From: Escherichia phage vB_EcoS-CHD2B1
DNA length: 45,144 nucleotides
Sequence record: MZ234026.1
Reading direction: 5' to 3' (one strand)
Position 1 is the stretch's first letter, and each line of letters starts with the position of its first letter. The position numbers were made by a program, and so were the translations under genes. Below the pieces are notes generated by a model. It did no database searches. It worked only from the letters and a program-made list of their open reading frames with translations, and was not told the origin of the DNA. Shown one piece after another: positions 1 to 9,811 of this stretch.

Positions 1-137
1 GCGCACTCATGATGTGTTGGTGTGCCCGTGCCGCAAACTGGCGCGCATAGTCTACGTTGCCGTTTGTGTTTTTTGCTTCGTCCAGCTTCGCTATGGCCCG
101 TGAGTATTTCCAGATTAATGCTTTCATTGTTCGGTCC
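1..137. repeat. Terminal overlap: 1..137 is identical to 45008..45144 (circular-assembly overlap or short terminal redundancy); contains the 5' end of the minus-strand gene 44839..45144
   Basis: Direct comparison of the first and last 137 nt of the window; both read gcgcactcatgatgtgttggtgtgcccgtgccgcaaactggcgcgc...ttaatgctttcat. Confidence 0.9.
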
Positions 138-149
138 TCATGTTGGTGT

Positions 150-180
150 GCAACCAATTTAGCAGGGTGCCAGGCTGAAT
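150..180. promoter_or_regulatory. Pair of TGCAACCAA motifs upstream (minus orientation) of gene 44839..45144
   Basis: gtgcaaccaattt...gaatgcaaccaatatt; same 9-mer recurs in many intergenic regions of this genome. Confidence 0.4.
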
Positions 181-339
181 GCAACCAATATTAATCATGC
201 GTATGAAAAAGCCGATCCCTATCTGCTGTAACTGCAAACTGCATTTTTCACTCACCATAATACAACTCGCATTGGTTGCCTAGTTCATCAACGACCGCAA
301 TTCACATCATGTTGCCGTGTGTTATGCAATCCCGGATTT

Positions 340-607: not shown

Positions 608-2872
608 TTAATCTTTCAGGTCATCATCGGTCGCTGAAAGCGTGATGGGTATATCCGATTTTATGACCAGATTCGACGACCCATAGATGGCCCCGGTGTG
701 TGGATCTGTATAAAATCCGAGCACGCCGCGCTCCACCATATCGTCAATTGCCTTCGTCGATGTGCCACCTTTCGCAAGTCCAGCCTGGCGGACGATTGCC
801 GATTTACTGAATCCAGTATGGTCCGGGTTATCTTCCATCAGTTTTTCCAGTGCCGCATAAAGCACCTTCTCTTTCTCGTTGCGCGGTCCGGCGGTGTTCT
901 CTTCCTTAACTGCTGCCTTGCCTGCTGCCTTAGCCTGTTCGATAGCGAACGGCGCCAGGGCGACCGGTACGAGGTAAAGAGTCTCGTCGCGTGGCGTGGA
1001 GGCAATTGGCTTGACGTCCCAACCGGCAACCACATCGCCGAAGTCTGGCCCGGTGCTGGTGGACTGGTGGGCTTCGAACGCATCAGACTTACGGAGATCC
1101 ACCTTAACTTTGCACTTGAGCAGGACGAAGCCACGCGGCGCTTGCTTGATGCCGTTACGTGACTTTTCGTGATACAGGTTAAGCTGGCCTGGCTGATTAT
1201 CGTCCGGCTGTTCCAGGAAGAACGCAGAATCTACAGCACCATGAAGCGCGCCGGACCCGCGTGGTGACCTGCTGCCGTTTGCACCCTTAGCCGGGTGATG
1301 GATGACACCCGCACTGCCACCTGTATTTTCCGCAATGGACTTCAGCGCCTTGACCACTTCGCCCATATCGCTTGCGTTGTTCTCGTCGAACGGTTTGGCA
1401 TCAGCGGACCGCAGCGCTACAGTCTGGTTGAGTGAGTCGAAGGCCACCAGGCCAACCGGCTCCCCGTTAGCGGTGCGGTTGATAAAGCTGATAACCTCGC
1501 GCAAGCCTGACTTGCTGGTAATATCCCAGCCGCGTGATTGCAGGTCGATAATGTGCAGCTTGTCGAGGTCGTGCTCGTATTTAATCTGCAATGCTTCCTT
1601 ACGCTGGTTGGAGGCTTCGCCACCTTCCGCATCGAAATAGAAGCAATGCGACTGGACGACCTTCGCGCCACCGAACGGAATCCCCGCGGCAACAGCGCCC
1701 ATCTGGCCCAGCACGTAGAACGACTTACCAATGTTCGACTCACCCGCCATATACCAGGTAGATTTGAAGTTGACCAGGCCTTCGATAATCGGGTCGTGCT
1801 TACTGAACAGAGCGACCGGCTCGTTGTCCAGGTCAGCGTCGGTGCATTCGCCGTACTCGTCGCCGTCTCCGACCGCATCAACAATATGTTCATAGCACGA
1901 TTCCACTTCCTCGTCGTCCAGTCCGGGAAGGATGGCGGCGATTTGCTTGCGTGACATGTTGTGTGGCTCGACGTTCAAGTGGTCCGGGATGCCGATCAGA
2001 CGCAGCGCCAGGTGCTGGTGTTTATTCAGTTCGGAACAGAATTCGTTGCCGGTGTGCATACACTTGAAACGGATCTCGCCATCCTTAACCATGATAGCCG
2101 TCGACCCGCCGCCGCTATGCAGGTGCTCGTTCGGGCAAGGCACTTCATAACCGCGACCGGATGACAGTGGTTCAAAGCCAGCCTGGAAGCACCAATCCAG
2201 AATGCCGTCCGCCACGCCATCGGCGCCCTGGGTCAGTTCGCGGCGCACTTCCTCTTTCTCCACTCCCAGCTTGTCAGCCAGGCGAAGCAGACGACGGACA
2301 CGGGCGCGCTTTCCGTAGTGGCACTTTATGACAGACTGCTGGTGAGGCAGGTACATAAGGCGGTTGGTGTCTTTCGTACAATCGTCGAAGTCCACATCTG
2401 ACAGGCCCAGTTGGTCTAATAGCGCATACTGGACGCGGCCCAGGTCTTCAGCCGGTACAGGCTTGTCAGTGAGCACCAGGAAACGGGCGCAACGTGTGCC
2501 GCCTTTCAGTGGGTGACGGTCGCCGGTTGTGGTGTGGAATACGTGCTCCAGGCCAGCGTCGGTGAACGCCTTACGGCAGCGGCGTAAGGTGCGGGTGTCA
2601 GTGCGGTCAATATCGAAGAACAGGATCGAGCGGTCGACCGCACTGGTCTTGCGGCGTAAGCCATCATTGGTATAGGCCACGATGCCATCAGCCTTACGCT
2701 TGCGGCGCGCATACTCGGCTTTATCTTCAGTCTTGTTGATGTGCACCGAGGAGATTTCTTTCGCATCGTTGATAAATTCGAAAAATTCATCAGTGGTCAT
2801 CTCGAAGTTTTCCGCCCTGGCTTTTTCGCCTTTTTTAGCGGGTCTTGTTACTGCGAATTTAATTAAGCTCAT
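608..2872 (-). CDS. DNA primase/helicase (N-terminal primase-polymerase-like domain, Cys/His zinc-binding motif, C-terminal RecA-like helicase with Walker A GESNIGKS)
   Basis: 754-aa ORF; motifs CPNEHLHSGGGS...KCMHTGNE and GESNIGKS...AFDSLN; ATG at 2872. Confidence 0.8.
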   Translation of the reverse strand: MSLIKFAVTRPAKKGEKARAENFEMTTDEFFEFINDAKEISSVHINKTEDKAEYARRKRKADGIVAYTNDGLRRKTSAVDRSILFFDIDRTDTRTLRRCRKAFTDAGLEHVFHTTTGDRHPLKGGTRCARFLVLTDKPVPAEDLGRVQYALLDQLGLSDVDFDDCTKDTNRLMYLPHQQSVIKCHYGKRARVRRLLRLADKLGVEKEEVRRELTQGADGVADGILDWCFQAGFEPLSSGRGYEVPCPNEHLHSGGGSTAIMVKDGEIRFKCMHTGNEFCSELNKHQHLALRLIGIPDHLNVEPHNMSRKQIAAILPGLDDEEVESCYEHIVDAVGDGDEYGECTDADLDNEPVALFSKHDPIIEGLVNFKSTWYMAGESNIGKSFYVLGQMGAVAAGIPFGGAKVVQSHCFYFDAEGGEASNQRKEALQIKYEHDLDKLHIIDLQSRGWDITSKSGLREVISFINRTANGEPVGLVAFDSLNQTVALRSADAKPFDENNASDMGEVVKALKSIAENTGGSAGVIHHPAKGANGSRSPRGSGALHGAVDSAFFLEQPDDNQPGQLNLYHEKSRNGIKQAPRGFVLLKCKVKVDLRKSDAFEAHQSTSTGPDFGDVVAGWDVKPIASTPRDETLYLVPVALAPFAIEQAKAAGKAAVKEENTAGPRNEKEKVLYAALEKLMEDNPDHTGFSKSAIVRQAGLAKGGTSTKAIDDMVERGVLGFYTDPHTGAIYGSSNLVIKSDIPITLSATDDDLKD

Positions 2873-2882
2873 TGCCGTTGCC

Positions 2883-3212
2883 TTACTTAGAAGTTTTATT
2901 ATTGCGTACCCAGGAGCGCACGGTGCTCTGATTAATTCCAGTTAACTCGGCAATCATCGCCCAGGACTTGCCCTCGTCGCGCAAACGGATAACCTGCTTT
3001 TTGTATTCTTCCATTTCTTCATTGTGTTTTTGCAGCTTGCTTGCTGCCGTACCGTTGAGTAATTCCAGCTTGGCGCGCAATTCTTTTTCGACACTGCGCA
3101 GGCGTTCGATTTCAAATAACGCCGCACCAACGGCATCGGTATAAGCCCAGGACCGGCTTGTCTCACCACTAACGGTCTTAGTTAACATTTCGATTGCGTC
3201 GTTGATATGCAT
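2883..3212 (-). CDS. Small DNA-binding protein with C-terminal helix-turn-helix (candidate transcriptional regulator)
   Basis: 109-aa ORF, coiled-coil middle, C-terminal WAMIAELTGINQSTVRSWV HTH-like segment; RBS AGGAGA 6 nt upstream of ATG. Confidence 0.55.
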   Translation of the reverse strand: MHINDAIEMLTKTVSGETSRSWAYTDAVGAALFEIERLRSVEKELRAKLELLNGTAASKLQKHNEEMEEYKKQVIRLRDEGKSWAMIAELTGINQSTVRSWVRNNKTSK

Positions 3213-3258
3213 TGTTCTGTCTCCTATTGGTTAATGACCAACGAAACTACACCTAAAA

Positions 3259-3287
3259 TTGCAGGGTGTCAACTCCTTTTGTATATT
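3259..3287 (+). promoter_or_regulatory. Sigma70-like promoter TTGCAG-N17-TATATT
   Basis: -35 at 3259..3264, 17-nt spacer, -10 at 3282..3287; lies in the divergent intergenic region. Confidence 0.4.
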
Positions 3288-3342
3288 GAAACGGGCGCGC
3301 ACGCGTGTAATAATAATCACGTCTCATTGTCTCTTATTGGTT

Positions 3343-3378
3343 AGCGCCGTCGCATTTTGCCTCGGCGCTTTTTTTTTG
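3343..3378 (+). terminator. Rho-independent terminator (AGCGCCG ... CGGCGCT followed by 9 T)
   Basis: GC-rich inverted repeat 3343..3369 followed by T-run 3369..3377, about 80 nt downstream of the promoter at 3259..3287. Confidence 0.5.
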
Positions 3379-3388
3379 AAATTAGTTG

Positions 3389-3418
3389 TTGACACCCCAC
3401 CTGCAACCAATCTATTAT
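3389..3418 (+). promoter_or_regulatory. Strong sigma70-like early promoter TTGACA-N18-TATTAT; TGCAACCAA motif sits in the spacer
   Basis: Consensus -35 TTGACA at 3389..3394, -10 TATTAT at 3413..3418; upstream of the plus-strand operon starting at 3615. Confidence 0.55.
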
Positions 3419-3614
3419 TCACTCCGTCGACAGGATGCAGGACGCAAACTGGAGAGGGGCAACGCAGGGGCCGGATCGAAGTGTCAGGATTCCCAACCGT
3501 GATTATATAACCAGGTCCACTACCCGAAAGGGAGAACGCGTAACCTGGCACTATGTTAAGGCCACCGACGAAGTTGACTGCCGACACCTAAACTTAACCA
3601 ATCGGAGATATACC

Positions 3615-4133
3615 ATGTTTGAGCAAATCGTAAACCTGATCACACGCGGCGTAGTAGCACTGGAAACCATCGCTAAGCATTATGAAACTGCTGGCGCTGC
3701 CGTTGGTAAACAGGAAGCGAAGAAAGCCCCGGCTAAGGGCAAGGCAAAAGAAGAAGTAGTCGAAGATGACGACGCTGAAGACGAAGCACCGGCTAAGACC
3801 AAAAAAGCGCCAGCAAAGGGCATGGCTAAGAAAGAAGCCGTAGAAGAAGACGACGCGGACGACGAAGAAGAAGCCCCGGCGAAATCTAAGAAAGCACCGG
3901 CGAAAGGTAAAGGCAAGAAAGATGCCGATCCGCTGAAAGAGATGCGCGACGAAATCAAGCAGTATGCCGCTATTATTGCTGGCGGTGATGACGACGACGC
4001 AAACGACGAATTTGACGACCTGCTGGAAGAATTCGAAATTAAATCCGTTGCCAAGCTGGAAGATGACGACGTGGAAGAGTTCCACCAGGAATTAAAAGCA
4101 ATCGTCGAAACTTATTTCGAATTAGAAGATTAA
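3615..4133 (+). CDS. Highly acidic repeat protein (alternating Lys-rich KKAPAKGK and Asp/Glu-rich blocks); candidate DNA-mimic or host-takeover protein
   Basis: ATG at 3615 with GGAG RBS; in-frame upstream ATG at 3435 has no RBS; repeats EDEAPAKTKKAPAKG / EEEAPAKSKKAPAKG; first gene after the early promoter. Confidence 0.6.
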   Translation: MFEQIVNLITRGVVALETIAKHYETAGAAVGKQEAKKAPAKGKAKEEVVEDDDAEDEAPAKTKKAPAKGMAKKEAVEEDDADDEEEAPAKSKKAPAKGKGKKDADPLKEMRDEIKQYAAIIAGGDDDDANDEFDDLLEEFEIKSVAKLEDDDVEEFHQELKAIVETYFELED

Positions 4134-4269: not shown

Positions 4270-4298
4270 CCGGCCCGCTAATCTGCGGGCCTATTTTT
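4270..4298 (+). terminator. Rho-independent terminator (GGCCCGC taatct GCGGGCC tattttt)
   Basis: Perfect 7-bp GC stem followed by T-run. Confidence 0.6.
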
Positions 4299-4311
4299 AG
4301 AGGACGAGACA

Positions 4312-4563: not shown

Positions 4564-4748
4564 TGACTAAATTCTTCGTGCTGGCAACTTGCCACAAAAC
4601 AAACGACCACTTCTCTTTTATGGTCGTTAACCATGACGCCTCGATGTGCTGGGTAGATGCGCAGCGTGAAGTGCACCGCCGTGTCGAACAGGCGGGAATG
4701 GCTAATATCTGTAAATATGTAATTGTCCAGTTTACAAGGGTGGAATAA
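4563..4748 (+). CDS. Hypothetical protein (61 aa)
   Basis: ATG at 4563 overlapping the upstream stop; stop overlaps next start. Confidence 0.45.
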   Translation: MTKFFVLATCHKTNDHFSFMVVNHDASMCWVDAQREVHRRVEQAGMANICKYVIVQFTRVE

Positions 4749-6178
4749 TGGCTATTAAACCAAAGCGCAAAACGCAATCCGGTAGCAATACGGAACACTC
4801 ATTACTCGGACCATCGGGATCTAAAAAATGGATGGGGTGTCCTGCCGCCCTGGTAGTCGAAAAAGGTATCCCGAACGAATCCGGGCAAGCTGCGATTAAC
4901 GGTACGAGTATGCACACCGTATCAGAGGTCGTGTTAAACCGCATCATTGCCGGTGAGAAGAAGCTATCCGCGAAGACGTACAAAGGGTGCTACGTCGAGA
5001 ACGAAGGTAAGGGACCGGTAAAGGCCCACCCGAAAGCACCGAAAGGCGGCGTACTGGTCAACGACGATATGGTGAAACAGTGCGATGCATACATCGACCA
5101 CTGGCGACCGCTCCTTGAAGTGGCGGAGTTTGTTCAGCTTGAAATGCGCGCCGATCTCACCCGCATCTTGCACCCTGGCTTCGAGATAGACGGCAACAAG
5201 GTGAAGACGTTCGGAACTGCCGATATGGTCATGGTCATGAAGAAGACCGACGGCACGCACATGCTTATTGTTGGCGACCTGAAGACCGGGCGACATAAGG
5301 TCGAGGCGAAAGAAAACAAACAGCTTATGTTGTACGCGCTGGGCCTGCTGCGCAAGCTGCAAACCATGTACGACATTACGACCGTTCGCCTGGTAATCTT
5401 CCAGCCGTATTGCGGCGGGGCGTCAGAGTGGGATATTACAGTTGAAGCGCTGGAGATATTCGCTAAGTTTGCATCCAAGCGGGCTACCGCCGCACTGGAA
5501 GCGTACGCCCGCGGCAAGAAGGGACTTACCCGTGCCGACTTCCGACCGAGCGTTGACGCCTGTCAGTGGTGCCGATTTGCGGATCAGTGTAGTGCCCGTG
5601 CTAAGGCCGCCATCGCCACGATGACCCCACCAACGGCAACAGACGAAGACCTGGGCGACGACGTGAGCGTGGCGACAGAGGAAGAATGCGCCAACCACGA
5701 CCGCAATATGGCCCGCGAAGCCCGGAAAGCGGCACGACGTGCGAAGCGTGGCAAGAAAGAAAAAGCACCAGGCGCTATGAGCGCGGCGGAACTGCGCAAG
5801 GCATACGAAGGTCTCGACGCAATGCGCCAGCACATCAAGGCTATCGAGTCCGCGGTATTCAAGGCCGTAATGGCGGGAGATGGCGAATCGCTGGGCCTCA
5901 AGATGGTTGCCGGTAAGGAAGGTAATCGCAAGTGGGCGGATGAGAGCGAAGTGATTGAGGTCTTCACGAAGGCCCGGATCAAGCGCGATGTGATGTACAA
6001 AGAAACATTGCTCAGTCCTACCGATGCTGAGAAGGTATTGAAGGACGAGAAACCGAAAGTGTGGGCGAAATTGTGTGATAAAATCACGCGCGCACCGGCT
6101 AAACCGGTATTGGCACCAATCGACGACCCGCGCCCTGCGTGGTCTGAAGCTACTGATGAGGACTTAAGTAATGAATAA
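4748..6178 (+). CDS. PD-(D/E)XK nuclease, Cas4/RecB-like with C-terminal Cys cluster (DUF2800-type phage exonuclease)
   Basis: 476 aa; motifs GTADMV...GDLKTG...LYALG and CQWCRFADQC; typical neighbour of DUF2815 SSB and family A polymerase. Confidence 0.7.
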   Translation: MAIKPKRKTQSGSNTEHSLLGPSGSKKWMGCPAALVVEKGIPNESGQAAINGTSMHTVSEVVLNRIIAGEKKLSAKTYKGCYVENEGKGPVKAHPKAPKGGVLVNDDMVKQCDAYIDHWRPLLEVAEFVQLEMRADLTRILHPGFEIDGNKVKTFGTADMVMVMKKTDGTHMLIVGDLKTGRHKVEAKENKQLMLYALGLLRKLQTMYDITTVRLVIFQPYCGGASEWDITVEALEIFAKFASKRATAALEAYARGKKGLTRADFRPSVDACQWCRFADQCSARAKAAIATMTPPTATDEDLGDDVSVATEEECANHDRNMAREARKAARRAKRGKKEKAPGAMSAAELRKAYEGLDAMRQHIKAIESAVFKAVMAGDGESLGLKMVAGKEGNRKWADESEVIEVFTKARIKRDVMYKETLLSPTDAEKVLKDEKPKVWAKLCDKITRAPAKPVLAPIDDPRPAWSEATDEDLSNE

Positions 6179-6413
6179 GGTGTTTGCATTCGTATTGATG
6201 ATTATGCTCGGCGCGCTGGGCTTTATCCTGCATTGCGTGCAAGGCGTGTTAATGGTGGCCTGGATGATTCGCCATCCGTCCCGCTGGCTGGACGATGGCT
6301 ACAGCGACGTTGCCGTCGATTGGGTCGAGAAGCACATCGACCGACCGCCGTTAAGCTGGATCGAGAACGCCACCAACTACGTGACGCGAAATCTTTTTAA
6401 TAAAAGTGCTTGA
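6171..6413 (+). CDS. Small membrane protein (80 aa)
   Basis: ATG with GAGGA RBS; hydrophobic N-terminal half VFAFVLMIMLGALGFIL. Confidence 0.5.
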   Translation: MNKVFAFVLMIMLGALGFILHCVQGVLMVAWMIRHPSRWLDDGYSDVAVDWVEKHIDRPPLSWIENATNYVTRNLFNKSA

Positions 6414-6438
6414 CCGCTTAGGCGCAACCAAGTAAATT
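6410..6438 (+). promoter_or_regulatory. Sigma70-like promoter TTGACC-N17-TAAATT with GCAACCAA motif in spacer
   Basis: -35 at 6410..6415, -10 at 6433..6438; upstream of the SSB gene. Confidence 0.45.
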
Positions 6439-6502
6439 AGCAACCAAGCCGAACGGGGTGGCTCACAATAACCCCGATACATGCGAAATGAGGAATTGAG
6501 AA

Positions 6503-7294
6503 ATGGCTAAAGTCAACCTGAAAAATGTACGAGTATGCTTCCTGAAAATTTGGGAACGTGATACCCCTAAACAGGATGGACAAAAACCGGCATACCGTGC
6601 CGTGATTCTTCTTGATAAAGAAGATCCGCAGGTGGACAAAGTGGAAGCGGCAGCGCGCGCAGTGCTTACCGACAAGCTGAAATCCGAGAAGAACGCCGAT
6701 AAGTGGATGGACCGCCACTACGCCCAGGATTCTAAGGAATGCGCAGTTCGTGACGGCGACGAGCGCGACGAAGTAACCGAAGAATTCGAAGGCATGTTGT
6801 ACATCAACGCCAAATCGTTCAAACAGCCTAACATTCAAACGTCACTGGGCGAGAAGCAGACCGAACAGGGTCTGACCATCGACGGCGACGAGATCGAAGG
6901 CCAGGAAATCTATTCCGGTTGTTATTGCAACGTGTCCCTGGATATTTGGGCGTGGAACAACACCAACGGTAAAGGTCTCGGTGCTGGCTTGATGGGTCTT
7001 CGCTTCCGTGACGATGGTGACTCCTTCGGTGGCGGCGGGTCTTCTTGTTCCGATGACGACCTGGGCGACGATGACGAAGATGAAGCACCGCGCAAGGCTA
7101 AGAAGTCCAAACGTCGTGATGACGATGACGAAGATGATAAGCCGCGCAAGTCCAAGAAATCCAAGCGTCGTGATGACGATGACGAAGACGAGGAAGACGA
7201 AAAACCTCGCAAGCGTCGCAAGTCCCGCGATGACGAAGATGAGGACGACGACGACGACGAAGACGAAGCACCACGTAAACGTCGCCGCCGTTAA
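6503..7294 (+). CDS. Single-stranded DNA-binding protein (DUF2815-type phage SSB) with a ~90-aa low-complexity acidic/basic repeat C-terminal tail
   Basis: N-terminus MAKVNLKNVRVCFLKIWE typical of this SSB family; C-terminus repeats DDDEDEAPRKAKKSKRRDDDDEDD... Confidence 0.7.
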   Translation: MAKVNLKNVRVCFLKIWERDTPKQDGQKPAYRAVILLDKEDPQVDKVEAAARAVLTDKLKSEKNADKWMDRHYAQDSKECAVRDGDERDEVTEEFEGMLYINAKSFKQPNIQTSLGEKQTEQGLTIDGDEIEGQEIYSGCYCNVSLDIWAWNNTNGKGLGAGLMGLRFRDDGDSFGGGGSSCSDDDLGDDDEDEAPRKAKKSKRRDDDDEDDKPRKSKKSKRRDDDDEDEEDEKPRKRRKSRDDEDEDDDDDEDEAPRKRRRR

Positions 7295-7313
7295 GGGCAA
7301 AGCCCACTATTCA

Positions 7314-7340
7314 AGCCCGCTTATTGCGGGCTTTTTATTA
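7314..7340 (+). terminator. Rho-independent terminator (AAGCCCGC ttatt GCGGGCTT tttatt)
   Basis: 8-bp stem followed by T-run directly after the SSB stop. Confidence 0.65.
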
Positions 7341-7352
7341 GGACAATGAAAA

Positions 7353-7523
7353 ATGCGTATTAAAGCCAGTGAAGTAAAAGTCGGAATGCGTGTATGGTCC
7401 AAATTGCTGGGCGAGTATTTTACCGTTGCCGAGATTCGCAACAACGGCGAAGAGATTGCCTTGTCGGATGGTATCTTCTCCATGATCGGCAGCGCTGACG
7501 CAGTAGTGAGGATAAAGCAATGA
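7353..7523 (+). CDS. Small hypothetical protein (56 aa)
   Basis: ATG at 7353 with AGGA 9 nt upstream; stop overlaps polymerase start (ATGA); below ORF-track cutoff. Confidence 0.4.
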   Translation: MRIKASEVKVGMRVWSKLLGEYFTVAEIRNNGEEIALSDGIFSMIGSADAVVRIKQ

Positions 7524-9811
7524 AAGACTTCGAACGCCTGTTTCTTGACACCGAGACATATAGCGGGGTGGACCTGAAGAAAGCAGGTGCGTATGCCTAT
7601 GCAGAACACCCATCCACCGAGATTATGATTTGCACCTACGCCATCGACGAGGGCCGCGTGCAGACATGGGACGCCACTGAATCCCCCACGATGCCGCGTG
7701 AACTGCGCAAGGCGCTACGCCAGGTAACCCGCAAGAAAGCAAAAATAGTGATGGCTAACGGCCTCCTGTTTGACCGCCTGGTTATCCGTGAAAAGTGGGG
7801 CATCGACCTGCCGGTAAGCCAGATCGAAGATACGATGATTATGGCCTTTCGTCACGCGCTGCCGGGTGGCCTCGATATGCAATGCCAGGTGCTGGGCGTT
7901 GACGCAGAGCACGCGAAGGATAAGGCAGGCAAGGCGCTGATTAAGCGATTTTGTAAGCCGACCCCTAAGACCTACAAAATCCGCCGCTACACGCGCGAGA
8001 CTCACCCTGAAGAATGGGCTAAATTCCTGCGCTATGCCGCGCTGGATATTATCGCAATGCGTGAAGTCTACTGGCGAATACCGGACTGGGGCAACTCACC
8101 GAAGGAAGATGAAATCCTGCGTATCGACCAGTTGATTAACGACCGTGGCTTCTATGTGGACGTTGACCTGGCGAACGCCGCGATCAAGGCGGTGCAGGTG
8201 CACAAAGAAGAATTGAAGGAAGAAGCCTGGGAACTGTTCGGCGGTAAACTGACCGGTAATGACTTCCTGCCAATCCTGCGTGATATTGCCCCGGCGTTCA
8301 CCATTCACAACGCGCAGAAATCCACGCTGAATGACTTGCTGGAAGATCCAGACTTCCCCGACGAGGGCAAAGTGCTTATTGAAATGCGCCTCGGCGCGTC
8401 ATCAACGGCATCGACTAAATACAATCCGCTCGTCAATGGTCTTTCTGCCGATGGTCGCCGCCGTGGTTGTCTTCAGTATGGTGGGGCAAAGCGCACACTA
8501 CGCTGGGCCGGTAAAGGCTTTCAGCCTCAAAACCTGGCACGTGGCGAGTACAGTGATGACCACGAAGGGAAGATTAAGCGCCGCGAAGGTGAGAGCGACG
8601 TCTCGTTTTGGGTACGGTCGCACATGCTCACCAACGGCATCAACTCCCTGTTACGCGGGACCGCGCACTGGGCGTATGACATATCGAAGCTAACCGCCTC
8701 GACCGTTCGCGGGTGCATTATCCCGGCTAAGGGCAAGAAGTTTGTTGTAGCGGACTACTCCAACGTGGAAGGGCGTGGCCTTGCCTGGATCGCTGGCGAG
8801 AAAACCGCGCTTATGGTGTTTAAGGCCGGACGCGATATCTATTGTGAAACTGCCGGTAAGATGTTTGGCCTTGACCCGGACTACATCAAAGCCAACCGCA
8901 AAGACCTACGCCAGATTGGTAAGGCGTGTGAATTGGGACTGGGCTATGGTGGCGGCGTCGCGGCGTTCTTGCAGTTTGCTAAAAACCTGGGCCTCGACCT
9001 GTACGCAATGGCTGACGTCATGAAGGGAACATTCCCCGATCATATTTGGGCGGCGGCTAAACGCGGTTATGAGTTTGCCCGCATCAACGAAGCGAAGCGC
9101 CCGCCGAAGCCCGGCAAGAAAGACGAGCGCCCGACTTACATACTGCCTAAAAACGTGTGGTTGACCTGCGACGCGATCAAACGTATGTGGCGTGAATCTC
9201 ACCCGAAGACCGTAGCCTTTTGGGCCGAGCTTGAGGAGGCGGTGTTATGTGCGATACGCAATCCAGGTAAGGCATACTGGGCTGGCGCGAACGTTCGCCC
9301 GGATGGCAAGAAAGCGCTCAAGATTGTGCGCACGAAGGCGAAGCACGACCCCACCTTTGACGAGGAACGCGACGACCCGAACGCCGCGGGCTGGTGGCTG
9401 AAGGTTGAGTTGCCGTCAGGGCGAATCATGAGCTACCCCGGAATCGCGCTGTCTGTCACTACCGAGATTGACGAAGACACCGGCAAGAAGCGCACCAGTA
9501 CCCGCATCAAATACCAGGGCGAGAATCAGACGACGCGCCAGTGGGGATTCCAGTACACCTACGGCGGCAAACTTACGGAGAACATCGTACAGGCGTTGTG
9601 CCGCGATATTCTCGCATGGTCCATGCCTGGTGTTGAAGCTGCGGGCTATGAAATCGTCCTGTCAGTGCACGATGAATTGATCACCGAAGTGCCGGACACC
9701 GACGATTACACGACCGAGGAGCTTTGCGCGCTGATGTGTGACCTGCCTATATGGGCGAAAGGTTTCCCACTTGCCGCCGAAGGCGACATCATGTATCGGT
9801 ATAGGAAGTAA
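7520..9811 (+). CDS. DNA polymerase, family A, with N-terminal 3'-5' proofreading exonuclease domain
   Basis: 763 aa; Exo I motif FLDTETYS; polymerase motifs RQIGKACELGLGYGGG and LSVHDELITEV. Confidence 0.9.
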   Translation: MKDFERLFLDTETYSGVDLKKAGAYAYAEHPSTEIMICTYAIDEGRVQTWDATESPTMPRELRKALRQVTRKKAKIVMANGLLFDRLVIREKWGIDLPVSQIEDTMIMAFRHALPGGLDMQCQVLGVDAEHAKDKAGKALIKRFCKPTPKTYKIRRYTRETHPEEWAKFLRYAALDIIAMREVYWRIPDWGNSPKEDEILRIDQLINDRGFYVDVDLANAAIKAVQVHKEELKEEAWELFGGKLTGNDFLPILRDIAPAFTIHNAQKSTLNDLLEDPDFPDEGKVLIEMRLGASSTASTKYNPLVNGLSADGRRRGCLQYGGAKRTLRWAGKGFQPQNLARGEYSDDHEGKIKRREGESDVSFWVRSHMLTNGINSLLRGTAHWAYDISKLTASTVRGCIIPAKGKKFVVADYSNVEGRGLAWIAGEKTALMVFKAGRDIYCETAGKMFGLDPDYIKANRKDLRQIGKACELGLGYGGGVAAFLQFAKNLGLDLYAMADVMKGTFPDHIWAAAKRGYEFARINEAKRPPKPGKKDERPTYILPKNVWLTCDAIKRMWRESHPKTVAFWAELEEAVLCAIRNPGKAYWAGANVRPDGKKALKIVRTKAKHDPTFDEERDDPNAAGWWLKVELPSGRIMSYPGIALSVTTEIDEDTGKKRTSTRIKYQGENQTTRQWGFQYTYGGKLTENIVQALCRDILAWSMPGVEAAGYEIVLSVHDELITEVPDTDDYTTEELCALMCDLPIWAKGFPLAAEGDIMYRYRK

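Follow-up and report, generated by a model that had tools for sequence, protein, structure and literature searches.

Why does the ssDNA-binding protein (SSB) of Escherichia phage vB_EcoS-CHD2B1 (MZ234026.1) carry a long tail of alternating acidic and basic blocks, and what is to be made of its likeness to an acidic protein (gpA) encoded upstream? Both questions arise from a sequence-only reading of the 45,144-nucleotide stretch of DNA analyzed here (the window), which described the SSB as DUF2815-type with an unusually long charge-alternating tail, and suggested that the tail and the upstream protein share an interaction module or have recently exchanged repeats.

The SSB gene and its setting

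The SSB matches the PF10991 (Enc34_ssDNA-bd) profile over residues 3–193 with 111.2 bits (cut-off 26), phrog_112 ("Gp2.5-like ssDNA binding and annealing protein"; E = 1e-51) and, by sequence, the PDB chains 4klk, 4jg2 and 5odj. In the AlphaFold2 model, residues 1–170 have block-mean pLDDT values of 84–98 (mostly >90), with the last strand at residues 156–170, and the best Foldseek matches of the model are 4klk (E = 6e-13), Enc34 ORF6 (5odl, E = 3e-12; also 5odj) and T7 gp2.5 (1je5, E = 1e-6). These sequence and model-based matches identify the gene product as a T7 gp2.5-like phage SSB of the DUF2815 family, with a predicted preference for ssDNA. Residues W68, Y137, C140 and F168 are near-invariant in a 34-sequence alignment. 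The gene has 99.6% DNA identity to Dhillonvirus vB_EcoS_WFI, and sits in a phage replication module with genes for a DUF2800 nuclease, a family A polymerase and a primase-helicase, an arrangement that recurs in other phage loci (Table 1). The hairpin 3' of the gene is annotated as a terminator in vB_EcoS_WFI, and a terminator lies at the equivalent place in Jerseyvirus Ent1; Rfam at gathering thresholds gave no match around the SSB gene or in the 190-nt gpA leader.

Table 1. Positions in the window of the SSB and gpA genes and of the features in and around them
Feature	Position	Strand	Remark
Sigma-70-like promoter candidate upstream of gpA, TTGACA-18-TATTAT, leader ~190 nt	3389..3418	+	11/12 consensus match only
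gpA, 172 aa, acidic (net charge -23)	3615..4133	+	First same-strand gene upstream of the exonuclease-SSB-polymerase genes
gpA central charged linker, two EDE/EEE-AP-AK-x-KK units (motif starts 3777, 3858)	3705..3929	+	Motif scan
Terminator-like hairpin after gpA	4272..4300	+	7 GC pairs, then TATTTTT
SSB gene, 263 aa + stop	6503..7294	+	DUF2815 / Enc34-type, T7 gp2.5-like; ORF
Predicted OB-fold ssDNA-binding core, residues 1–174	6503..7024	+	AlphaFold2 + Foldseek
Gly/Ser hinge FGGGGSSC, residues 175–182	7025..7048	+	Kept in 16/16 Dhillonvirus sequences
Proximal acidic motif SDDDLGDDDEDE, residues 183–194	7049..7084	+	Counterpart of the start of the family's ordinary short acidic tail
DNA tandem repeat, period 54 bp (18 aa), 2.3 copies, 88% matches	7067..7188	+	Tandem Repeats Finder
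Basic block 1 APRKAKKSKRR, residues 195–205	7085..7117	+	Kept in all Dhillonvirus relatives examined
Unit 2 DDDDEDD + KPRKSKKSKRR, residues 206–223	7118..7171	+	Inside the 54-bp tandem repeat; missing in L009, L010, L012, L013
Unit 3 DDDDEDEEDE + KPRKRRKSR, residues 224–242	7172..7228	+	Missing in L012; part-deleted in L003
Unit 4 and C-terminus DDEDEDDDDDEDE + APRKRRRR, residues 243–263	7229..7291	+	APRKRRRR identical in 15/15 intact Dhillonvirus tails
Terminator-like hairpin + T-run just 3' of the SSB stop	7313..7341	+	8-pair stem, 6 GC pairs

Architecture of the SSB tail

From residue 171 on, the ORF translation reads DGDSFGGGGSSCSDDDLGDDDEDEAPRKAKKSKRRDDDDEDDKPRKSKKSKRRDDDDEDEEDEKPRKRRKSRDDEDEDDDDDEDEAPRKRRRR*, identical to the string first transcribed from the window. 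These last 93 residues include 30 D, 11 E, 15 R and 13 K (net charge -13). Residues 183–263 form four directional units, in each of which an Asp/Glu run of 6–13 residues is followed by x-Pro and then by a Lys/Arg(/Ser) run of 8–11 residues, and the protein terminates in ...EAPRKRRRR. In sequence alignments, SSB residues up to 189–194 are matched by the C-termini of DUF2815 chains with solved structures, and short-tailed family members carry similar acidic-F/L-acidic motifs (e.g., DDF/DEF..D) after the OB core. An internal acidic-Leu motif, SDDDLGDDD, is kept at residues 183–191; the canonical acidic tip with hydrophobic or aromatic residues is absent from the C-terminus, where the last residues are APRKRRRR.

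The charged fraction of the tail is 0.83, its net charge per residue -0.14, and its kappa 0.60, as against 0.12 ± 0.05 (maximum 0.28) in 300 shuffles. By its sequence, the tail classes as a blocky polyampholyte (charged fraction above ~0.35 and kappa well above that of shuffled controls). AlphaFold2 assigns it pLDDT values of 45–56 (<50 from residue 178) and no secondary structure, and it is predicted to be disordered. Eukaryotic nuclear mixed-charge regions (nucleolin N-terminus, RD/RE and RS-acidic domains) likewise have alternating acidic and Lys/Arg(/Ser) runs, high kappa and predicted disorder. Homology to these is not implied: the context here is bacterial/viral, and the units are short and regular, with a Pro-started basic block. 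We know of no phosphorylation system for the SSB tail.

The four junctions in the window read APRK, KPRK, KPRK and APRK, and thus do not form the S/T-P-[KR]-[KR] repeats of the SPKK type; the Gly-rich part of the tail is confined to the hinge FGGGGSSC, unlike the Gly/Gln/Pro-rich linkers of bacterial SSBs. An ER/K single alpha-helix (SAH) was rejected, as the tail is dominated by Asp over Glu, has Pro at each acidic-to-basic junction, and shows no helix in AlphaFold2. A nuclear-localization-like reading of KPRKSKKSKRR was also discarded, since a 45-kb E. coli siphovirus offers no compartment to target.

Distribution of the tail and selection on it

Family frequencies were derived from 149 cluster representatives out of an exhaustive search in which only the OB core served as query; 1,704 members of the family were detected at E <= 0.001. 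An initial homolog search was word-indexed and hence enriched for similar tails, and was kept out of the frequency counts. The tail after the OB core has a median length of 26 aa (IQR 22–33) among the 149 representatives, and ~86 aa by the same measure in the protein studied here. Together with the PF10991 match, this bears out the original description of a DUF2815-type SSB with an unusually long tail, and within the DUF2815 family phage SSB tails are indeed short as a rule, as had also been stated. A basic block is absent from 130/149 (87%) of the core-selected members; the C-terminal residue is hydrophobic in 96 (64%) and basic in only 9. On these sequence comparisons, the charge-striped tail is atypical for the DUF2815 family but not unique.

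The acidic-Pro-basic unit is present 1 to ~10 times in several DUF2815 lineages, and reaches homologs at ~25–35% core identity that have several to ~10 or more units in proteins of <=359 aa. Jerseyvirus, Kagunavirus, Cornellvirus and Eiauvirus (35–63% core identity) conserve a Pro-initiated basic block, preceded by an acidic motif, at or close to the C-terminus, and in several distant lineages the repeats come after the OB core and before an acidic/hydrophobic tip that has been retained (DDDVA, DDDDI, DDLPF). On a neighbor-joining tree of OB cores, the 16 tail-positive taxa need ~9 state changes (vs 15.3 with shuffled labels), which points to one main tail-bearing clade plus several scattered occurrences. 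All seven metagenomic loci with an upstream region have a single gene order: primase or helicase (minus strand), gpA-like gene, DUF2800, SSB, PolA. The wide spread of the striped tail type within the family had been missed by the sequence-only reading, and a search of the open-access literature found no description of an alternating acidic/basic tail on such SSBs.

Across 16 Dhillonvirus sequences, the tail has a pS of 0.31, a pN of 0.030 and a pN/pS of 0.095 (OB core, 0.065), the ratios being computed on an alignment of low complexity from pairs that were pooled and are not independent; judged by this ratio, the tail is under purifying selection. Dhillonvirus tails have 2–4 units; every indel preserves the reading frame, comprising whole units and triplets, and both tail ends are fixed. 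Two basic blocks suffice in the natural Dhillonviruses L012 (224 aa) and P0003 (218 aa), so that a high valency can be dispensed with. The SSB tail is frameshifted in two database entries; these, if genuine, would make the tail dispensable, at least in the laboratory. An apparent 2-bp insertion is recorded in the tail-coding region of vB_EcoS-22664B1.

gpA and its likeness to the SSB tail

The full length of gpA matches phrog_3127 (E = 2e-50), and the ORF opposite it has no PHROG family match; neither Pfam nor a profile search of the PDB returned anything for gpA. The gene is kept on the + strand in 14 Dhillonvirus loci, with homologs at the equivalent position in Eiauvirus, Jerseyvirus, Kagunavirus and Cornellvirus, those outside Dhillonvirus being identified by position and by eye; tblastn with gpA retrieved Dhillonviruses only. 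A poor AlphaFold2 model (mean pLDDT 48) has a helix at residues 2–23, no structure at 24–105 and three helices at 106–168. The charged linker has a kappa of 0.46 and a charged fraction of 0.55, and the strings originally quoted from it, EDEAPAKTKKAPAKG from 3777 and EEEAPAKSKKAPAKG from 3858, are confirmed. Its Ala/Pro/Lys blocks (KKAPAKGKAKK) resemble histone H1 and nucleolin tails. Among Dhillonviruses, gpA has 0 to ~3 units and lengths of 115–180 aa; the repeats are wholly absent in the natural Dhillonviruses P0364, P0355 and P0362, an absence in nature that had gone unseen in the sequence-only reading.

The module of acidic run, x-Pro-x-Lys and basic run does recur in gpA, as had been proposed, in two motif copies. 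Smith-Waterman alignment of the SSB tail with gpA scored 108, compared with 60 ± 7 for residue shuffles (0/2000 reach this score) and 80 ± 7 for shuffles preserving the acidic/basic/other pattern (2/2000). When the whole window is translated in all six frames, the junction motif [DE]{3,}[AKRST]P[RKAS][KR] turns up at six sites, four of them within the SSB tail and the other two within gpA. Given this score and the confinement of the motif, the likeness exceeds mere compositional bias, on which the proposal could have foundered. Across 15 diverse phage loci, the motif count is 65 for SSB tails and 13 for gpA-like genes (9/15 genomes), as against two in all remaining six-frame codons (~297,000), and SSB–gpA similarity is higher within than between genomes (mean z 2.99 vs 2.12, permutation p = 0.007), a signal that leans on few genomes (4/15 rank first in their row).

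In the locus L027, ~55 aa of the SSB tail closely match the C-terminal tail of the gpA-like protein, with identical codons at 14/37 positions vs 17 expected; such a match despite randomized codons suggests that the similarity is maintained at the protein level. Tips like those of the SSBs occur on gpA-like proteins of other lineages: DDVV in both proteins (L028), DDGLV vs DDDLV (L030), and DDDDDL vs EDDDI (SD-13_S19). Same-genome matching of a Lys or Arg "flavor" was considered and rejected, as gpA-like proteins are Lys-rich in 15/15 genomes and most SSB tails are Arg-rich (GC content 0.46–0.60). On sequence grounds, it is plausible that the SSB tail and gpA share an interaction module, a reading that gains support from its recurrence in other phage lineages and from the same- vs cross-genome test; the SSB–gpA link overall is partly supported.

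Proposed working of the tail

We posit, with a probability of about 0.4, that the SSB tail serves self-association and replisome contacts as a multivalent electrostatic linker or tail. Acidic blocks of one tail would pair electrostatically with basic blocks of neighboring tails. Replisome partners may likewise be contacted through their basic or acidic surfaces, and a further possible contact is gpA, by way of its similarly striped linker and its acidic C-domain. The tail would give a monomer-type SSB the multivalency that tetrameric SSBs gain by oligomerization, helping SSB to coat ssDNA cooperatively, or to cluster once bound to it, and keeping partners at the fork, and its acidic blocks would retain the classical SSB-tail functions of DNA groove occlusion and polymerase or helicase binding. 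Enc34 ORF6 is a monomer or transient dimer whose tails touch neighboring molecules in the crystal (PMC5686142), and both condensation and cooperativity of E. coli SSB are tuned by linker composition and charge (PMC12143593; bioRxiv 10.1101/2022.01.17.476650). Predominantly negative linker charge abolished condensation in an E. coli/Plasmodium SSB chimera (PMC12143593). The net negative charge of the present tail (-13) counts against the multivalent-linker reading, as do the natural Dhillonviruses with two basic blocks and, if genuine, the frameshifted tails.

Enc34 ORF6 of an Enterobacter/Hafnia phage (PDB 5ODJ/5ODK/5ODL), the type member of PF10991, has the Pfam family and OB-fold variant in common with this SSB; both are encoded in a phage replication gene cluster, and both have an unstructured, acidic-starting tail after the core. 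However, the Enc34 ORF6 tail has 29 residues, of which 16 are acidic, and no basic blocks (PMC5686142), compared with the ~80-residue charged tract here with its four acidic/basic alternations and RKRRRR end. T7 gp2.5 belongs to the same fold class (Foldseek E = 1e-6), and both it and Dhillonvirus SSBs trigger Retron-Eco8. The T7 gp2.5 tail is purely acidic over 26 residues and ends in ...EDGDF, whereas the present tail ends in the opposite charge and without a terminal aromatic or hydrophobic residue; the terminal aromatic residue of T7 gp2.5 is functionally critical. T7 gp2.5 is an essential replisome SSB, with an acidic tail that binds the polymerase and the helicase-primase as well as the protein's own DNA groove (PMC5686142, PMC13402713).

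With E. coli SSB, the protein has in common the succession of OB core, variable-length disordered linker and partner-binding element, and in distant DUF2815 lineages the striped repeats occupy the E. coli-type linker position, before the retained acidic/hydrophobic tip. The E. coli linker is Gly/Gln/Pro-rich and almost uncharged (PMC12143593), in contrast to a tail that is 83% charged; moreover, the OB family of E. coli SSB is unrelated in sequence, and the E. coli protein forms tetramers, as against the monomeric state of the solved DUF2815 relative.

In the sister phages SECphi4 and SECphi18, it is the SSB that triggers Retron-Eco8. Escape mutations for these two SSBs are T56P or lie in the promoter, and are uninformative on the tail. 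Defense sensing via the tail was rejected in view of these escapes, and because deletion of the T7 C-tail leaves activation unaffected.

A bolder scheme, which we regard as distinctly unlikely, would combine the striped SSB tail with gpA, through the striped linker and acidic C-domain of the latter, in an electrostatic, coacervate-like scaffold of two components that organizes the replisome of a small siphovirus. In this clade SSB polarity would be reversed, with the basic tip docking on an acidic partner rather than an acidic tip on a basic pocket; the module would have arisen repeatedly in DUF2815 phages, and the gpA-like first genes would be general SSB-tail mimics or competitors.

Alternative explanations

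The basic blocks might instead be auxiliary nucleic-acid-binding arms restrained by the adjacent acidic blocks, with fork dsDNA, RNA primers or a second ssDNA as targets, adding affinity or bridging two SSB-coated strands and thereby favoring the annealing attributed to gp2.5-like proteins; we consider this possible but rather doubtful. Each block is a Lys/Arg/Ser run with Pro at its start (APRKAKKSKRR, KPRKSKKSKRR), the RKRRRR terminus does not vary, and the first junction reads SPRK in 9/16 Dhillonvirus relatives, an S-P-[KR]-[KR] string resembling the histone SPKK motif, which binds the minor groove. Database records name the protein "ssDNA binding and annealing protein," and removal of the acidic tail of Enc34 ORF6 unmasks dsDNA binding, which indicates that tail electrostatics control the DNA specificity of this OB-fold variant (PMC5686142). 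However, the tail is net acidic and every basic block is flanked by an acidic run of equal or greater length that should neutralize it, the great majority of the family (130/149) lacks any basic block, and the AT-hook core RGRP is absent from the SSB tail. Each unit could alternatively be one copy of a short linear docking motif for a single partner (polymerase, primase-helicase, DUF2800 exonuclease or the acidic gpA C-domain), with gpA binding or competing for the same site, which we judge unlikely. Consistent with this are the confinement of the junction motif to SSB and gpA in the window, its near-confinement across the 15 loci, the same-genome similarity, the L027 match, and the SSB-like tips of gpA-like proteins in several lineages. 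Yet the gpA repeats are dispensable in nature, the gpA-like protein is motif-free in 6/15 genomes, gpA is Lys-rich in every genome and most SSB tails Arg-rich, and the permutation signal comes from few genomes; so simple a pattern is also expected in any charge-striped disordered region.

Two further explanations concern the origin of the repeats. Near-neutral replication slippage in GA-rich codons, tolerated by disorder and leaving a tail with no more function than an ordinary acidic one, is improbable: the 54-bp units are 88% identical in DNA, close relatives differ in unit number, and frameshifted variants exist in databases, but pN/pS is low despite considerable synonymous divergence, the first and terminal units are invariant in Dhillonvirus, an acidic motif with a Pro-initiated basic block is kept across four other genera, and the pattern recurs in distant lineages. 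That the likeness of SSB tail and gpA linker reflects recent copying of repeats between the genes, the other proposal of the sequence-only reading, is scarcely credible. The best SSB–gpA DNA local alignment spans 39 bp (33/39) within a GA-rich acidic run, and a DNA local alignment score of 43 exceeds the 26.7 ± 3.9 of codon shuffles (3/1000 reach it), although this null destroys the charge blocks. Tandem Repeats Finder shows no repeat family common to both genes, and identical codons number 196 vs 177 expected from codon usage in 14 Dhillonvirus genomes, with the L027 pair likewise near expectation; with codon identity thus at chance, recent exchange is rejected.

Implications for phage replication

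In the textbook picture of bacterial and phage SSBs, the universal handle for partners is a short, hydrophobic-tipped acidic tail. A well-populated clade of T7-type SSBs appears instead to keep a charge-striped array under selection, one that is arginine-ended in enterobacterial siphoviruses. Among the members of the clade are Dhillonvirus, Jerseyvirus and Kagunavirus, which are in use for phage therapy and defense-system research, and tractable phages with such SSBs are available (BASEL Bas83-85, SECphi4/18); the Retron-Eco8 work showed the predicted SSB structure minus "flexible C-terminal residues." The gpA-like first genes are conserved, uncharacterized members of the replication module. 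Should the array serve in self-association or in capturing partners, it would represent another route to SSB multivalency, and these phages would offer a natural series, from 1 to ~10 units overall and 2–4 within one genus, for how charge patterning tunes replisome assembly.

SSB Identity and C-Terminal Tail

The 263-aa SSB matches PF10991 (Enc34_ssDNA-bd, formerly DUF2815) over residues 3–193 (111 bits), and also phrog_112 (“Gp2.5-like ssDNA binding and annealing protein”). In the AlphaFold2 model, residues 1–170 form an OB-fold core of high confidence (block-mean pLDDT 84–98, mostly >90), and the closest structures to the model are the DUF2815 proteins 4klk and 4jg2, Enc34 ORF6 (5odj/5odl), and T7 gp2.5 (1je5). 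Sequence, fold, and genomic context all establish it as a member of the DUF2815/gp2.5-like SSB family; the sequence-only reading had already called it a DUF2815-type SSB.

From residue 183 the protein reads SDDDLGDDDEDE-APRKAKKSKRR-DDDDEDD-KPRKSKKSKRR-DDDDEDEEDE-KPRKRRKSR-DDEDEDDDDDEDE-APRKRRRR to the stop codon; at the DNA level, units 1–3 form a 54-bp tandem repeat (2.3 copies, 88% matches). The tail has low pLDDT (45–56) with no secondary structure predicted by AlphaFold2, a charged fraction of 0.83, and a net charge per residue of −0.14; its charge segregation (kappa) is 0.60, against 0.12 ± 0.05 in shuffles. The acidic/basic repeat tail is therefore real: a disordered, directional array with strongly segregated charges, attached to a gp2.5-type SSB. 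The acidic/hydrophobic C-terminal tip that defines SSB tails is absent, and the basic C-terminus contradicts this canonical form. The tail alone (residues 184–262, window 7052..7288) matches positions 276–361 of phrog_15004 (E = 5e-6), a separate PHROG family likewise annotated “single strand DNA binding protein”; a further phage SSB family may therefore have a similar charge-striped tail.

Solved DUF2815 chains stop where the SSB reads ...FGGGGSSCSDDDLGDDD, and short-tailed family members have a comparable acidic-Phe/Leu-acidic motif right behind the core; thus, residues 183–194 are the counterpart of the ordinary tail start, and the 69 residues beyond residue 194 are an addition to it. Tail frequencies were derived solely from an exhaustive search with the OB core alone (residues 1–177; 149 cluster representatives); the first, word-indexed homologue search was biased towards similar tails and was left out. 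Among these representatives, median tail length past the core is 26 aa (IQR 22–33), basic blocks number zero in 130, at least one in 19, and at least two in 11, and the C-terminal residue is hydrophobic in 96 and basic in nine. With ~86 aa and four basic blocks, the tail lies at the family extreme, bearing out the earlier view that it is unusually long. The tails of Enc34 ORF6 and T7 gp2.5, by contrast, are described in the literature as short and acidic.

Replication Gene Cluster

The window belongs to Dhillonvirus (HK578-like E. coli siphoviruses); over 6400..7520 it shares 99.6% identity with Escherichia phage vB_EcoS_WFI, and this region has matches in 154 phage records. The SSB and gpA genes both lie within the replication gene cluster (see table). 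Terminator-like hairpins stand directly 3' of both genes, and gpA also has its own promoter-like site, which suggests that the two proteins would be expressed above the level of downstream genes. SECphi18 has a counterpart of the 56-aa ORF, listed as “protein of unknown function (56aa)”, in which one escape mutant has a frameshift at E21 (Table S2, bioRxiv 10.1101/2022.08.27.505566).

Features of the window and of related loci (L handles)
Sequence	Feature	Coordinates	Strand	Remark
Window	Helicase-primase	608..2872	minus	divergent from plus-strand genes
Window	HTH protein	2883..3212	minus	divergent from plus-strand genes
Window	Strong promoter-like site	3389..3418		upstream of gpA leader
Window	Putative gpA leader	3435..3614	plus	~190 nt
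Window	ORF opposite gpA	3594..4085	minus
Window	gpA, small acidic protein	3615..4133	plus
Window	Strong terminator-like hairpin	4272..4300	plus	after gpA
Window	DUF2800/PD-(D/E)XK nuclease	4748..6178	plus	downstream of gpA
Window	SSB	6503..7294	plus	downstream of DUF2800 nuclease
Window	54-bp tandem repeat	7067..7188
Window	Strong terminator-like hairpin	7313..7341	plus	after SSB
Window	56-aa ORF (phrog_10102)	7353..7523	plus	between SSB and polymerase
Window	Family A DNA polymerase	7520..9811	plus
L025	gpA-like gene	2941..3381
L026	gpA-like gene	1517..1954
L026	Tad2-like domain gene	4721..4984		between DUF2800 nuclease and SSB
L028	gpA-like gene	3080..3514
L029	gpA-like gene	2311..2721
L030	gpA-like gene	1..309
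L033	gpA-like gene	3023..3505

Conservation and Recurrence of the Tail

Across 16 Dhillonvirus loci plus database clusters, the SSBs are 218–263 aa long and contain between two and four basic blocks. Hinge, proximal acidic motif, first basic block, and terminal ...DEDEAPRKRRRR stay constant, and tails differ by whole-unit or triplet indels. Tail pS is substantial (0.31) and pN low (0.030), and the resulting pN/pS (0.095, close to 0.065 in the core) is indicative only, because values were pooled over non-independent pairs in a low-complexity alignment. Related genera possess a minimal form or a few units (Jerseyvirus Ent1, ending ...DDLEDDEDETPRRERRRNR; Kagunavirus Bas73, ending ...DLEDDEEDEAPRRERRRR; Cornellvirus SP-031, two units; Eiauvirus eiAU-183, three units). 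Distant homologues (~25–35% core identity; proteins of up to 359 aa) have several to about ten or more units (e.g., DDDEDEKPRRRRSR); many retain the canonical tip (DDDVA, DDDDI, DDLPF), and in these the repeats occupy the position of the disordered linker of bacterial SSBs. Gene order is the same in 7/7 metagenomic loci containing the upstream region; two others, L030 (cut short) and L032 (arranged differently), depart from it. On a neighbour-joining tree of cores, rough at such divergence, the 16 basic-block taxa require ~9 state changes vs 15.3 with shuffled labels, which indicates one main clade and several scattered occurrences. The unit pattern recurs in the family, with residues conserved and unit number variable.

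In L018 (MZ234008.1, vB_EcoS-22664B1; protein P0005), a 2-bp insertion (CG) just past the proximal acidic motif (~window 7068) puts the whole tail out of frame; translation then runs beyond the usual stop codon to yield a 269-aa product with the end ...AAVKGKAHYSSPLIAGFLLGQ. P0010, from a Logan assembly, is an independent second case. These are either sequencing errors or natural tail-less phages, and in the latter case the tail can be dispensed with. The SSB frame of L015 (IMGVR_UViG_3300045988_003101) reaches the contig edge as ...RRDDAVSYTHLRAHET, in which we take AVSYTHLRAHET to be a translated Nextera transposase adapter; this end would then stem from adapter left untrimmed in the public contig and be no variant tail. 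In the metagenomic phage L026, a gene whose product has a Tad2-like domain (PF11195, linked to anti-Thoeris activity) is inserted ahead of the long-tailed SSB.

The Acidic Protein gpA

The 172-aa gpA (net charge −23), a plus-strand product, aligns with phrog_3127 from end to end (E = 2e-50). It has conserved counterparts in 14 Dhillonvirus loci and homologues in other genera. No match to PHROG families was found for the opposite ORF, which looks like an antisense reading of a repeat. The Bas85 record (L001, PQ850624.1, Bas85_0051) has a 163-aa opposite-strand ORF annotated in place of gpA, probably a strand misannotation. Several database entries (P0288, P0324, P0330, P0334; 207–239 aa) place the start at the upstream in-frame ATG (3435). 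The MFE/MLE methionine is the start in homologues of other genera, and 3615 follows a GGAGA Shine-Dalgarno sequence; the intervening segment is more likely a 5' leader than coding. No Rfam match was found for this leader.

A low-confidence model divides gpA into a helix at the N-terminus, a charged linker in the centre, and a C-domain that is helical and acidic; within the linker, an acidic run leading into EAPAK-x-KKAPAKG occurs twice. In Eiauvirus, Jerseyvirus, Kagunavirus, Cornellvirus, and the metagenomic phages, the module likewise opens with a gpA homologue or a positional analogue built in the same three parts; a gpA-like protein also occurs in one Chi-like Lavrentievavirus, which has a short SSB tail.

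Likeness Between the SSB Tail and gpA

The Smith-Waterman score between tail and gpA (108) exceeds both residue shuffles (60 ± 7; 0/2000 reach 108) and shuffles keeping the acidic/basic/other pattern (80 ± 7; 2/2000), and six-frame translation of the 45-kb window contains [DE]{3,}[AKRST]P[RKAS][KR] six times, four in SSB and two in gpA. The module noticed from sequence is thus common to these two proteins and, within the window, confined to them. With the junction motif slightly relaxed, 15 loci yield 65 occurrences in SSB tails, 13 in gpA-like proteins (9/15 genomes), and two in the remaining ~297,000 six-frame codons. Shuffle-normalised similarity is higher within genomes (mean z 2.99) than between them (2.12; permutation p = 0.007), a signal carried by few genomes. 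In the clearest case, L027, ~55 aa of the SSB tail match the C-terminal tail of the gpA-like protein (PKSKKSKRSRDDDDDDDEPKSKKKASSKRSRDDDDDD vs PKSKKAKRNDDDDEDEKPAKKKASAKRSRDDDDDE).

In several lineages (gpA-like genes in the table), the tip of the gpA-like protein resembles that of its own SSB (...EEEDDVV vs ...RRDDDDVV; ...DDGLV vs ...DDDLV; ...DDDDDL vs ...EDDDI). In L024, the two proteins share a C-terminus made of an acidic run and then [KR]PRRR.... These resemblances suggest that gpA-like proteins imitate the SSB tail or compete with it.

Proposed Role of the Tail

We tentatively favor a multivalent electrostatic role (probability about 0.4), in which blocks of opposite charge would pair from one SSB tail to the next and with replisome partners. 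An SSB that is itself monomeric would thereby gain the valency it needs to coat cooperatively or to cluster, and to retain partners; the acidic blocks would retain classical tail functions. Enc34 ORF6 is a monomer or transient dimer whose tails touch neighbours in the crystal (PMC5686142), and condensation and cooperativity of E. coli SSB are demonstrably tuned by linker composition and charge (PMC12143593). Three points call for caution: the tail is net negative, variants with two units are viable, and the frameshifted tails may be genuine.

The tails might instead be autoinhibited arms that bind or anneal nucleic acid; the basic blocks are consistent with this possible but less probable account. 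Somewhat less probable again is a repeated docking motif common to the tail and gpA: the shared module fits it, but the unit is missing from gpA of some natural Dhillonviruses (P0355, P0362, P0364), and gpA-like proteins are Lys-rich everywhere whereas SSB tails are mostly Arg-rich, which argues against tight functional coupling. That the array originated by neutral slippage is improbable; the tandem repeat and whole-unit indels are compatible with it, but the low pN and the constant elements speak against it. Recent repeat exchange between the two genes, the other proposal of the sequence-only reading, is very improbable: identical codons at aligned identical residues number 196 vs 177 expected from codon usage (14 genomes), and 14/37 vs 17 expected in the L027 stretch. 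Codon matches are no commoner than codon usage predicts; therefore, the likeness lies at the level of protein pattern and does not reflect recent transfer.

The explanation of the tail is largely electrostatic, and its function is an unproven proposal. Dhillonvirus SSBs are the trigger of Retron-Eco8, and the study that identified them left “flexible C-terminal residues” undisplayed; searches of open-access papers turned up no account of alternating-charge SSB tails. The tail is a real, selected, and unusual feature of experimentally tractable phages.
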